This document shows positions 16,749-20,380 of a stretch of 63,482 nt of DNA, in pieces. Where the stretch lies: contig JBGOTQ010000003.1 in assembly GCA_041476565.1 (NCBI GenBank), positions 1 through 63,482 on the forward strand, in the 5' to 3' direction. Origin of the DNA: Terriglobia bacterium (GTDB taxonomy: Bacteria > Acidobacteriota > Terriglobia > Versatilivoradales > Versatilivoraceae). Numbering within the stretch: position 1 is the stretch's first letter; every line of letters begins with the position of its first letter. The notes beneath the pieces are model-generated. The model was not told the DNA's origin. It did not search any database and saw only the letters and a program-made list of their open reading frames with translations. A program made the translations under genes and the position numbers.

Positions 16749-17741
16749 ATGTCTACCAGCGCGGCGATCCAGCATGTCGTAATCATCGTCAAAGAAAACC
16801 ACTGCTTCGACAACTACTTTGGCACATTCCCCGGCGCCGAGGGGGCGAAGTTGGGCCTTTCAGCGAATCCGCCGAGAGTAGATCCAGACCACCGTCACGT
16901 GGCGTGGTTGAAGCGAAGTGGGACGGCTGTCCGTGAGCAATTCACCTCAAAAGATATCCCCGCTTATTTTGCTTACGCGCGCGAGTTTACACTCTGCGAC
17001 CACTACTTTACTGACGTCGCGGGACCATCCACGCCAAACCACCTGATGCTCATCGCCGGCGATTCCCCAATAATTGATAACCCCCACCAATATAGGCTCC
17101 CGGTAGGTGCGCCGCTATTCAAGATCCCCTCGTTGCCAGGAAGTCTGGAAAAAGCAAAATTGACCTGGGGGAACTACGGTGGTTACGCCTTCGACTTCAT
17201 CGAAGAGTTACACCGTCGTCACAAATACCCGTCCACGCAATTCTCCGCAGACGCCAGCGCCGGAAAGCTGCCGAATGTTTCCTGGGTCTACGCACCTCAT
17301 GACGCGAGCGAACATCCGCCCGACCCAAAAGATCGAAGTAATGCCTTGGTTGGAAATGTCACACACGGGATGCAGTGGACGGTGGATCAGGTCAATTCTA
17401 TCGTCAAGGGGAGCCTCTGGCCGAAGACCGCCATCTTCATTACTTGGGACGACTGGGGTGGTTGGTATGATCACGTTGATCCCCCCAACGTGGAAAAATG
17501 GACTGATGGAACGCAATTCCGTTACGGTTCCCGCGTGGGCTGCCTGGCGCTCAGCCCTTATGCCAAACGAGGCTACATCTCCAGGCAACTGCATTCCCAT
17601 GTGAGCCTGCTCAAGTTCTGTGAAACCACGTTTGGTTTGCCACCCCTTAACCAGCGCGTCAGCACCGCACAGGACATGACGGATTGTTTCGATTTCAAGC
17701 AGCAGCCGAGTCCACCGCCACCGACCAAACCAATGATTTAG
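16749..17741 (+). CDS. Phosphoesterase / phospholipase C (AcpA/PlcN-like) family protein
   Basis: IQHVVIIVKENHCFDNYFG, FTLCDHYF..GPSTPNH, ITWDDWGGWYDHV, YGSRV...SPYAK. Confidence 0.92.
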   Translation: MSTSAAIQHVVIIVKENHCFDNYFGTFPGAEGAKLGLSANPPRVDPDHRHVAWLKRSGTAVREQFTSKDIPAYFAYAREFTLCDHYFTDVAGPSTPNHLMLIAGDSPIIDNPHQYRLPVGAPLFKIPSLPGSLEKAKLTWGNYGGYAFDFIEELHRRHKYPSTQFSADASAGKLPNVSWVYAPHDASEHPPDPKDRSNALVGNVTHGMQWTVDQVNSIVKGSLWPKTAIFITWDDWGGWYDHVDPPNVEKWTDGTQFRYGSRVGCLALSPYAKRGYISRQLHSHVSLLKFCETTFGLPPLNQRVSTAQDMTDCFDFKQQPSPPPPTKPMI

Positions 17742-17924
17742 ACATTGCCTATACCACTAGGAGCGGGTCCCGAGGTCTTTGGACTCTGAAGAATTCCGGA
17801 ATGACTGGATCTTCTCAATGGTCCAGTCTCGCTCCGGTCACAGACTCTCTTTCCGGTCACTCATTGCTCGAAGTCCAATTTTCCACACCGGCTGACCCAT
17901 TGCTAACTGGACGATTTGGGAACT

Positions 17925-17959
17925 TTGACACTTGACAAAGGTGTCAGCAGTTTGATATT
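17925..17959 (+). promoter_or_regulatory. Sigma70-like promoter with overlapping palindrome
   Basis: TTGACA at 17925 and 17932, GATATT at 17954, TGACAC-N9-GTGTCA at 17926..17946. Confidence 0.5.
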
Positions 17960-18150
17960 TGAATATATTGGGGAGTGTTGAAATTGGCCCGTTTCGGTAC
18001 TGCGGGCCTTCTCTTCGGACGTCGTTGAAAGGGAGCGGGAAGCATCATGTGGACGGGCATGGATCTTCGGTTTCAGATGATCTTTCTGGGTAACCGAAAA
18101 GACGTTTGGTTACGCAGCTAGAACGCCTTTTGTAAAATCGGCCCATTCTG

Positions 18151-18192
18151 AAACCGACAAGCTTTGTTCCTCAAGTTATGTCGGTTTTTTTT
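18151..18192 (+). terminator. Intrinsic terminator in the leader of the HNH gene
   Basis: AAACCGACA...TGTCGGTTT stem followed by a T run. Confidence 0.75.
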
Positions 18193-18298
18193 ACCCAACG
18201 GAAGAGAGGATTAGTGAAAGGTGAAACTCTCTCCAGTGTTGGAAGAGCGCTTCATCTAACTGGATGCATCTTTAAGGCTCGGGAGCTGGAAACAAGGT

Positions 18299-18826
18299 AT
18301 GGAAACAACTCTCCTACTCAACGCGTCTTTTGAGCCGTTGAAAATCATAACCTGGCAAAGGGCGATCACCTTGCTGTTTGCCGGCAAGGTGGAAGTCATT
18401 GAAGAGTACACGCGTGAAATTCACAGTGTGACCTTTTCAATGCGGCTGCCTTCGATCCTCCGATTGCTGAAGTATGTGAGGGTAAGAAGGACCCGAGTCG
18501 TCAAGTTTTCTCGGGCCAACATTTACGCACGTGACAGGCACACCTGCCAGTATTGTGGCCAGACCCTCCCGAGCGATGAGCTGACGTTCGACCATGTGAT
18601 CCCTGTATCGCGCGGGGGCACCAAGAACTGGGAAAACATTGTGACAGCCTGTATCGAATGCAACCGTAAGAAAGGAGGGAAGACGCCTGAGGAAGCCGGA
18701 ATGAAACTGGTCCAAAAGCCGCATGAACCCCTCTGGGTTCCTAGTTTCAATGTAACCTTCGTCTTCAAGAATTCCCCCGAAAGCTGGCGGGATTATCTAT
18801 ACTGGAACGTAGAATTGGAAACCTGA
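18299..18826 (+). CDS. HNH endonuclease (McrA/HNH_5 type)
   Basis: LLLNASFEPL, RDRHTCQYCG, TFDHVIPVSRGG..WENIVTACIECNRKKG. Confidence 0.95.
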   Translation: METTLLLNASFEPLKIITWQRAITLLFAGKVEVIEEYTREIHSVTFSMRLPSILRLLKYVRVRRTRVVKFSRANIYARDRHTCQYCGQTLPSDELTFDHVIPVSRGGTKNWENIVTACIECNRKKGGKTPEEAGMKLVQKPHEPLWVPSFNVTFVFKNSPESWRDYLYWNVELET

Positions 18827-18901
18827 AGCATTCCACTGTCTATCCGATTCCCTCCATCGTCCGGGAGGTCATCCTATTCTGGATATTCAACGCCACTCCC
18901 C

Positions 18902-19453
18902 ATGTCCTCAACCCCAAAAGTCCAGTTGCGTGCCTTCGAGCCGGAGGATCTCGATATTGTCATCCGTTGGGTCAACAATGAGGCGGTCACGCTAAATCTT
19001 TCCGACTTCCTCCTCTACCCCGTGTCCCGGGCCGACGAAATGAAATGGCTCGAGAGTGTTTCCATGGCCAACCCCAACGAGAAAACCTTCGCCATTGAGA
19101 CTAATAACGGCCGACTGATCGGGTCGGCGGGGTTACGCGGCATCAATTGGGTGGAACGCAAAGCCGAACTGGGGATTATGATCGGCGAGACTGATTGCTG
19201 GGGGCAGGGATATGGCACCTCGGCGGTACTCGAATTATTGCGGATCGCCTTTGAAAAGATGAACTTGAATCGGATCTACCTGCGCGTGTATGAGGGCAAC
19301 TCGCGGGCAATCCGGGTTTATGAGAAATGCGGTTTTCGCGGGGAAGGAATTCTTCGGGAAGACCACTATTCGAGCGGAGCATACCATAACACTCTGGTTA
19401 TGGGGATCCTGAGGAGAGAGTACTTCGAGGCCTATCACTCTGCCAGCACTTAA
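18902..19453 (+). CDS. GNAT N-acetyltransferase, RimJ/RimL family
   Basis: AELGIMIG..WGQGYG, LNRIYLRVYEGNSRAIRVYEKCGF. Confidence 0.92.
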   Translation: MSSTPKVQLRAFEPEDLDIVIRWVNNEAVTLNLSDFLLYPVSRADEMKWLESVSMANPNEKTFAIETNNGRLIGSAGLRGINWVERKAELGIMIGETDCWGQGYGTSAVLELLRIAFEKMNLNRIYLRVYEGNSRAIRVYEKCGFRGEGILREDHYSSGAYHNTLVMGILRREYFEAYHSAST

Positions 19454-19516
19454 CCCTCTGATGACTACTTCAGAGGGAAGAGTCTTGGTCGGGAATCTCG
19501 TGATGCCCACAAGGGT

Positions 19517-20023
19517 TTATGCGTGGCTGCCTCGGACTCTAACGGTGGTCAAGGCGTGGTCGACGAGTGCTTGGACCTTGTCCTCCGTCTGGTTCCCGAC
19601 CGTTGCCACTTCACTGACCAATAGATAGCGGGCCCGGTCAAGCATCTTCTTTTCACGAAACGATAGGACTCGACTCTGGCTGAGAATGGAGAGGCTTTTC
19701 AGTACGTCGGCAACGTCAAAAATGCAGCCGGTCCGCATCTTGTCAGAGTTTTCTTTGAATCGGCTCTTCCAGTCGGAGTAGTTGGCAACCTTGACATTGC
19801 GGAGATGATCCAAGACTTTCGTTACATCTTCCTTCCTGATCAGCTTCCGCAAGCCCACGTCAGCAACATTACCCGTAGGCACCATCACCATCATGCTGTT
19901 GGAATAAATCTTGAGCTGGTAGAAAGCTTCTTCATGGCCGGAGACACTGCGAGTATTGATCCGCTCAATCACGCCCACTCCATGATTCGGATAAACCACC
20001 TTTTCACCAATTAGGAAATTCAT
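19517..20023 (-). CDS. carD: CarD family transcription factor
   Basis: FLIGEKVVYPNHGVGVIERI, MVPTGNV...GLR, LSFREKKMLDRAR. Confidence 0.92.
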   Translation of the reverse strand: MNFLIGEKVVYPNHGVGVIERINTRSVSGHEEAFYQLKIYSNSMMVMVPTGNVADVGLRKLIRKEDVTKVLDHLRNVKVANYSDWKSRFKENSDKMRTGCIFDVADVLKSLSILSQSRVLSFREKKMLDRARYLLVSEVATVGNQTEDKVQALVDHALTTVRVRGSHA

Positions 20024-20380
20024 AGGTCCTTCAAAGGAAGGGAAAACTAAAGGCAACACAAAGGCTTCAAAACTACATTCTACTCATTCCTCCTCCAGGA
20101 GTCAAACATGAAATTGGATGACACACAACATGACAATATAATTTATGCAAAAAGGCTAAGGCGCATTTTGAGAATCACCTGCAACTAAGCACGACGCAGG
20201 AACAACCTACCCCCGAAATCACGCCCCATCCGCAGACCCTTCGGGACTGATCTCCACCTTGATCTGGATTGAGGAACGGGCTGGCCAGGCGCACAGCAGA
20301 CCGACCCGGCAGTCAGCACTGCAACATCACCCCGAGTCTGACGGGTCTCCCTGGATTCCGGATCCATTTTAATTCTCACT

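Follow-up and report, generated by a model that had tools for sequence, protein, structure and literature searches.

To our knowledge, nearly all work on leader-peptide attenuators has been done in Proteobacteria, Firmicutes, and Actinobacteria, and most of those described control biosynthetic or resistance genes. In trpL and the other amino-acid leader attenuators, a promoter, a Shine-Dalgarno (SD) site, a short leader open reading frame (ORF), and an intrinsic terminator stand in front of the structural gene, and the terminator reads the position of the ribosome. A second class comprises bmrB-bmrCD of Bacillus subtilis (PMC4191407), together with vmlR, the msrD leader MsrDL, and ermK. Here, the rate of leader translation sets terminator read-through, rare codons tune the response, and impaired translation is sensed rather than any single metabolite. 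In the bmrB attenuator, for example, rare codons in the leader ORF raise read-through (PMC4191407). A third group consists of arrest peptides such as TnaC, SpeFL, SecM, MifM, and PepNL. Their ORFs are short and conserved mainly near the C-terminal stall point, while the N-terminus and the residues after the stall are variable. TnaC has 24 codons and includes critical W and D residues. Lastly, in HEARO, the omega-RNA of IscB, a structured non-coding region adjoins a gene with an IscB/Cas9-like HNH domain.

The leader considered here resembles each of these systems in part. It shares the order of elements with trpL and the shape of the ORF with the arrest peptides, and it lies next to a gene with an HNH domain of the IscB/Cas9 kind; the reading of ribosome position by its terminator, and the sensing of impaired translation in the manner of bmrB, are proposals of this study. 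It is found within a window of 63,482 nt from an acidobacterial genome (contig JBGOTQ010000003.1), designated G000. G001 is a relative of the same genus, and labels such as g1 and g11 refer to genera. Judging from the comparisons described below, we see an even chance that the leader is a ribosome-mediated transcription attenuator built on a new leader ORF (uORF), conserved as a peptide, with a programmed pause at codons 21-22.

The locus begins downstream of a phosphoesterase gene that ends at 17741, and its parts are all encoded on the forward strand. A promoter of the sigma-70 type (17932-17959; 10 of 12 positions matching) has its -35 hexamer TTGACA at 17932-17937, a 16-nt spacer, and its -10 hexamer GATATT at 17954-17959, from which transcription would start at about 17966. 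A purine-rich SD region (GGGAG/GGGAAG; 18031-18042) precedes the 24-codon uORF (18047-18121), which encodes MWTGMDLRFQMIFLGNRKDVWLRS followed by a stop codon. Codons 16-22 (18092-18112) specify the core N-R-K-D-V-W-L and form the candidate pause site, with the Trp codon at 18107-18109 and a UUA codon at 18110-18112. The intrinsic terminator follows at 18150-18192, and a variable spacer (18193-18298) separates it from the proposed regulated gene (18299-18826), which encodes a 175-aa HNH protein (Pfam HNH_5, 3e-18; HNH). A facultative downstream gene (18902-19453) encodes a GNAT acetyltransferase (Pfam Acetyltransf_3). A preliminary description of the locus had listed the ORF, an 11-nt complement between ORF and terminator, and the terminator itself in front of HNH and GNAT, and all positions and sequences that it gave agree with the sequence.

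Homologues of the uORF were sought by DNA and six-frame peptide searches in relatives, followed by inspection of the regions upstream of HNH orthologues. Twenty-seven were recovered (24 genomes and 3 metagenome contigs), representing at least seven genera of a single family, Ca. Versatilivoraceae (Terriglobia, Acidobacteriota), for which the surveyed genomes are all metagenome-assembled genomes (MAGs) of uncultured bacteria. The uORF occurs once per genome, in every case 120-250 nt ahead of the gene for the 175-aa HNH orthologue, and is 22-27 codons long. The order of promoter, SD, uORF, terminator, spacer, and HNH is constant in 24 of 24 genomes. This conservation is what the reality of the uORF rests upon, because a 24-codon ORF is not significant by itself (151 ORFs of at least 20 aa occur in 9 kb). 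The preliminary description had read the leader as an ORF followed by a genuine intrinsic terminator. With 27 homologues of the one and a terminator in all 24 genomes, that reading holds, and on comparative grounds both are genuine elements that a single family of uncultured acidobacteria from soil has conserved.

The promoter is equally constant, with the form TTGACA-16-GATA(A/T)T in 24 of 24 family genomes. It lies 67-115 nt from the AUG, leaving a 5' UTR of 32-80 nt, and an SD motif (GGAG, GGGA, or AGGA) occurs 6-10 nt before the uORF start in 21 of 24 genomes. Several genomes of genus g5 carry a second TTGACA hexamer inside the 5' UTR. Between the U-tract and HNH, by comparison, the spacer varies from 44 to 136 nt and, like the 5' UTR, cannot be aligned between genera. 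Further hairpins that had been pointed out at 18200-18275 are not conserved, and this region is partly deleted in G001. A promoter downstream of the terminator had been named as a finding that would overturn the attenuator reading; none of the 24 genomes has a promoter-like site in the terminator-HNH interval. Since the only promoter-like site lies upstream of both uORF and terminator, HNH must be reached by read-through.

The promoter also occurs in front of HNH where the rest of the leader does not. In G002, which either lost the uORF and terminator or never acquired them, the same promoter stands 117 nt before HNH, and in G026, a member of a neighboring family, TTGACA-17-AAAAAT is located 67 nt before the gene. 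The promoter thus belongs to HNH, and the uORF and terminator are a module inserted into the HNH leader.

Several lines of evidence bear on what is conserved within the uORF. Between g1 and g11, the frame shows eight synonymous and two non-synonymous changes. Among genera, pN/pS is 0.06-0.5, at pS values of 0.5-1.0 where synonymous sites are near saturation, and entropy is 1.16 at third codon positions versus 0.69 at first and second positions. The core reads G-x-x-(K/R)-D-V-W-(I/L): D19, V20, and W21 never change, only K or R occurs at position 18, and only I or L at position 22. Across the family, the invariant Val is written with each of its four codons and the invariant Asp with both of its own. 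The Trp residue is codon 21 in 27 of 27 uORFs, with the start codon exactly 20 codons upstream (26 ATG, 1 GTG), the otherwise divergent g3 version included; the single GTG start, in G012, has its own GGAGG. After codon 22, zero to five variable residues remain. Taken together, these patterns indicate that the uORF is under selection as a peptide and not as a nucleotide sequence, and selection at the peptide level implies that it is translated. The three representative uORF peptides compared with Pfam and NCBIfam found no match at E <=10.

Selection on a peptide would also be expected if the uORF encoded a product that acts in trans. Under this alternative, the main one to the attenuator, it encodes a 22-27-aa micropeptide that might, for instance, modulate or inhibit HNH or some other target, and a leaky terminator sets a high ratio of peptide to nuclease with no sensing of ribosomes at all. 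Purifying selection, the fixed length up to W21, and an SD site belonging to the ORF itself all fit such a gene, as does the conservation in most genera of D6, R8, F9, and L14 in the N-terminal half (these are replaced in g3, which has MNSVHPSQIPKIAWGKQRDVWI). We nonetheless regard it as unlikely, for reasons that begin with the codon following the Trp.

Codon 22 is AUA in 24 and UUA in 3 of the 27 uORFs. Among the Ile codons of the neighboring HNH genes in these genomes, AUA accounts for 4.7%, and among their Leu codons UUA accounts for 1.6%; the two are the second and third rarest sense codons of G000 (1.19 million codons). The other codons of the uORF drift freely among synonyms, and a micropeptide leaves the invariant use of such rare codons at position 22 unexplained. 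The idea that ribosomes undergo a programmed shift of frame here (+1 or -1) and so translate through the terminator was considered and rejected, as neither frame is consistently open (the +1 frame stops at W+25 in G011 and at W+16 in G007). A rare codon also recurs near the start of the frame, with AGA (Arg) as codon 2 in 15 of 24 uORFs (e.g., L011-L023). A search of G000 for tRNA genes with ARAGORN returned one tRNA-Leu(UAA), two tRNA(CAU), one tRNA-SeC, and no tRNA-Ile(GAU); the assembly comprises 566 contigs and this tRNA set is incomplete, so that AUA decoding cannot be inferred from it.

The terminator provides the second positional signal. In G000, its stem (18150-18164/18173-18188) has 12 pairs and one bulge at -15.2 kcal/mol, an 8-nt loop, and a tract of eight U residues at 18185-18192 (T8 in the DNA). 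A simple terminator scan missed this hairpin solely through the stem bulge, the loop being within the limit of the scan. Intrinsic terminators are present in 24 of 24 genomes, with energies of -12 to -29 kcal/mol and differing stem sequences. Counted from the Trp codon, the U-tract begins after 79.3 +/- 1.7 nt across the family and the left arm of the stem after 43.8 +/- 2.3 nt. The first of these distances is similar to that in trpL, whose stall codons lie roughly 80 nt before the U-tract of the attenuator. The stop codon, on the other hand, falls one to six codons after W (a range of 15 nt), and the interval from stop to left arm is 20-38 nt. By these measurements, it is the Trp codon, and not the stop codon, from which the terminator keeps its distance.

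This geometry again departs from what a micropeptide gene would require, since the residues after codon 22 vary or vanish and the terminator keeps its distance to W rather than to the end of the frame. In combination, the fixed Trp position, the invariant rare codon 22, and the spacing anchored on W speak for a cis-acting function that depends on position. One aspect of the geometry counts against the attenuator reading: at least 27 nt would separate the stem from a ribosome paused at codon 22 or at the stop, too far for direct blocking.

In the attenuation mechanism that we propose, transcription would start at the TTGACA-16-GATATT promoter and yield a 5' UTR carrying the SD and the 24-codon ORF. 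The translating ribosome would slow or arrest when its nascent chain ends in (K/R)-D-V-W and the next codon is UUA, as in G000, or AUA, as in most relatives; the pause would stem from the ...(K/R)DVW chain together with a slowly decoded NUA codon. The position of the lead ribosome as RNA polymerase arrives at the terminator would then govern how the RNA between them folds, and the outcome of folding would be either formation of the terminator at 18150-18192 or passage of the polymerase into HNH (and GNAT where present). In G000, the competing fold may be a helix of 11-13 bp between 18067-18079 and 18145-18157, and other genera would use other partners. General translation stress and limited decoding of AUA/UUA are the candidate signals. 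In short, we infer that the uORF is translated, that ribosomes pause at codons 21-22, and that termination is modulated as a result. If trpL and bmrB are a guide, read-through into HNH would probably follow when translation is slow or pauses.

A more specific version of this mechanism can be put forward only tentatively, and we rate it as somewhat unlikely. In it, (K/R)-D-V-W plus AUA/UUA would constitute an undescribed pause or arrest module that senses the capacity to decode NUA codons, be it through lysidine-carrying tRNA-Ile2, tRNA-Leu(UAA), or branched-chain charging, and that is coupled to HNH by way of a terminator at spacings of 44 and 79 nt. Trp limitation, which the preliminary description had offered as an inducing signal alongside translation stress, finds little in its favor across the family: W21 is the sole conserved Trp, W2 is confined to g1 and g11, there is no tandem run, and the genes downstream encode HNH and GNAT.

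How the folding step might operate is best seen in G000, where the preliminary description had proposed a pair of mutually exclusive structures. The 5' strand of the putative antiterminator, TCGGTTTCAGA (18067-18077), lies in codons 7-11 of the uORF, and its 3' strand, TCTGAAACCGA (18147-18157), overlaps the left arm of the terminator. The overlap is as described, and the pairing is non-random in this genome: a perfect inverted repeat of at least 11 nt arises in only 8 of 1000 dinucleotide shuffles of 17960-18300, and the duplex of the left arm with the upstream leader has p of about 0.01 (RNAduplex versus shuffles). The minimum free energy (MFE) fold of the whole leader includes the helix, although the z-score of that fold is only -1.6. 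What does not extend beyond g1 and g11 is the helix itself, and G000 is the only genome in which the duplex exceeds shuffles. It is shorter by one or two pairs in G001 (10 bp) and G011 (9 bp), shows no compensatory change within these two genera, and in G011 loses 2 bp through a synonymous CGG-to-AGG change.

These observations bear directly on a switch of the classical kind with two alternative structures. In such a switch, the helix 18067-77/18147-57 would melt as codons 7-11 are translated and so permit termination, the peptide would be irrelevant, and HNH would be induced by failed initiation or elongation or by scarce Trp. The significance of the 11-nt complement and its use in the MFE fold accord with such a switch. 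So does the effect of masking a ribosome footprint at codon 10: left-arm pairing drops to 0.36 in G000 (0.77 unmasked) and to 0.53 in G001 (0.83 unmasked). The pairing is, however, absent or insignificant in the 21 genomes outside g1 and g11, all of which keep uORF and terminator; their best left-arm partner lies elsewhere, in the 5' UTR or the uORF tail, and is no stronger than in shuffles. A switch of this kind also leaves the conservation of the peptide, the rare codon, and the fixed geometry without explanation, and it would have a single conserved Trp codon with which to sense Trp. We find it very doubtful.

Other candidates for a shared competitor were looked for with equally little outcome. 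RNAalifold, applied to 18 family sequences, predicted only the terminator and a 5-bp hairpin in the coding region, and partition functions with a ribosome footprint masked at codon 22, the stop, or codon 10 gave no consistent shift of left-arm pairing across the family. No competitor helix common to the family, and no consistent direction of switching, emerged from RNAduplex, RNAalifold (on genus g5 as well), folds downstream of the paused ribosome, or footprint masking; 27 sequences from about eight genera do not suffice to assess lineage-specific helices statistically by covariation. The additional G-x-G codons in the uORF tail of g5 are able to base-pair with the left arm ahead of right-arm synthesis (-13 to -22 kcal/mol), which would place the competitor under, and not behind, a ribosome at codon 22. 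A competing structure in each lineage is therefore plausible, but such a structure is not the feature that the family appears to conserve. The failure to find a conserved antiterminator counts against the attenuator reading and is in keeping with a micropeptide gene; in its other structural elements, the leader appears to have what defines an attenuator.

The coding-region hairpin deserves separate mention. It pairs GUAACCGAA with UUUGGUUAC (18090-18113) over the N-x-K-D-V-W codons, with 9 bp in G000 and 5 bp in most relatives. Its free pair, X3:V3, occurs as CG, AU, and GC types but is broken in 6 of 18 sequences, which makes for a weak signal, and changes on both sides are maintained in 9 of 19 predicted pairs when the terminator and this hairpin are counted together. 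As a conserved element, it was discarded, given that four of its five pairs follow from the amino acids, the fifth is the one so often broken, and the hairpin is missing in g3.

A further alternative sets aside regulation of HNH altogether. The unit from promoter to terminator (about 228 nt) would be a small RNA, possibly of dual function, that acts in trans or as a partner of HNH, and expression of HNH would be incidental read-through. The unit is indeed self-contained, and the HNH core resembles the HNH domains of IscB and Cas9. A structured RNA partner had likewise been suggested in the preliminary description, along with a scan against Rfam. Covariance models run over 17000-19500 returned nothing relevant at E <=10 (three spurious eukaryotic families scored far below thresholds), and the fold z-score of -1.6 given above is unremarkable for a structured RNA. 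Outside the terminator, moreover, conservation tracks codons and not base pairs, and the 5' UTR and spacers that such an RNA would contain cannot be aligned between genera. The 175-aa HNH protein has no RuvC or guide-binding domain, and its orthologues in other phyla do without the leader. We thus consider a small RNA highly improbable, and the earlier suggestion of an RNA partner for the nuclease falls with it.

The distribution of the module supports its attachment to one family and to one gene. A profile search of 301 genomes of the class and 400 of the phylum found no additional copies of the uORF, so that the peptide gene was never found apart from the HNH leader, which is not what one would expect of a free-standing micropeptide. 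No uORF or analogous leader precedes the HNH orthologues of other lineages (70 genome loci and 77 metagenome loci); outside the family, these genes have short upstream intergenic regions with neither such an ORF nor a terminator. HNH persists without the peptide in G002, G008, genus g9, and all other phyla, and its intactness in family members that have no uORF argues against an obligate protein partner.

Exceptional leaders within the family take several forms. At L055 (G008), a MITE-like insertion with terminal inverted repeats CTGAAGGTGTGAA ... TTCACACCTTCAG fills the HNH leader about 120-250 nt upstream of the gene; uORF and terminator are missing, and the contig ends 432 nt upstream of HNH. 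At L059 and L060 (G009 and G015; genus g9, with small low-GC genomes), the region upstream of HNH at 1501 and 2025, respectively, contains a gene resembling tRNA-Val(GAC) that has a promoter to itself and is situated between HNH and a doubtful relic of the uORF (MTVVWLRSFMFLFKRNDWHKLLTGQ), and there is no terminator. Lastly, at L062 (G016, genus g10), a run of N covers exactly the expected end of the uORF and the terminator stem, with the promoter and the T-run after the gap both present.

The HNH gene itself is far more widespread than its leader. Inside the family, orthologues share 71-97% identity; those of Vicinamibacterales, Nitrospirota, Desulfobacterota, and others are 60-68% identical. 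The core most resembles the stand-alone Geobacter HNH 4H9D and the IscB/Cas9 HNH domains, and it is the only part modeled with confidence by AlphaFold2 (residues about 70-145). The N-terminal segment LLLNASYEPL and the C-terminal segment ESWRDYLYWNVEL are invariant (loci L082-L151 and L155-L231) in spite of being poorly modeled. PADLOC, run on HNH and GNAT, reported only generic HNH-domain similarity, so HNH is not a recognizable component of a defense system. From its conservation, which is unusual for an HNH, the gene seems to behave like a housekeeping gene rather than a mobile nuclease.

GNAT is found in g1, g11, g6, g5, g2, and g8 and is absent from g3, g4, g7, and g9. The preliminary description had treated HNH and GNAT as a pair induced together, a unit that dissolves on comparison, as g3, g4, and g7 keep the leader without GNAT. 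A carD gene (19517-20059, reverse strand) converges on HNH or HNH-GNAT in every family genome examined, and the GNAT gene between them is an insertion. In the complete genome G024 (L009), HNH aligns as overlapping pieces, 1-134 and 118-175, in different registers, which suggests a small duplication or a frameshift. In other families of the class, a distant group of HNH paralogues (L063-L070; 40-46% identical) lies directly downstream of a ComF-like phosphoribosyltransferase gene (motif LLVDDVMTTGAT) and lacks the leader module.

The locus is unusual in three respects. An attenuator-like leader occurs in an uncultured acidobacterial family. What this leader conserves is a peptide, one invariant rare codon, and constant spacing to the terminator, not alternative helices. 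And it precedes the gene of a small HNH nuclease whose orthologues in several phyla are 60-68% identical. The literature searched contains no paper on Versatilivorator and none describing an HNH leader peptide. If the pause is real, it gives a first hint that the need for this widespread nuclease arises as translation slows. Were NUA decoding to be what is sensed, the HNH nuclease family would be linked to a response to translation or tRNA stress; were the uORF instead to encode a trans-acting product, it would represent a new micropeptide family tied to an HNH nuclease.

Set against the known systems, the leader differs most plainly from HEARO/omega-RNA. There is no Rfam match, the HNH protein has neither RuvC nor guide-RNA-binding domains, conservation resides in the reading frame, and the leader is specific to one family while HNH is widespread. 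Compared with trpL, it lacks a run of regulatory codons, having instead one Trp codon and one rare Ile or Leu codon; the sequence of its peptide is conserved; no conserved alternative helices of the 1:2/2:3 kind were found; and the regulated gene encodes a nuclease rather than a biosynthetic operon. In bmrB, the terminator lies inside the leader ORF and is accompanied by antiterminator and anti-antiterminator helices, whereas the ORF of the HNH leader stops 20-38 nt before the stem, and no conserved competitor helix was found. HNH is also neither a resistance transporter nor an ABC-F protein, unlike the genes of that class. From the arrest leaders, the uORF is distinguished by the lack of sequence homology and by the fact that arrest is, in this case, a proposal. 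Rho-dependent termination is the target of TnaC and SpeFL, which respond to a ligand, and SecM and MifM control translation initiation of the next gene; here, the target would be an intrinsic terminator. We know of no invariant rare codon at the putative A site of TnaC, SpeFL, SecM, MifM, or PepNL. A genuine pause at codons 21-22 would thus add a new motif to the arrest peptides, one that is directly testable in a cell-free system.
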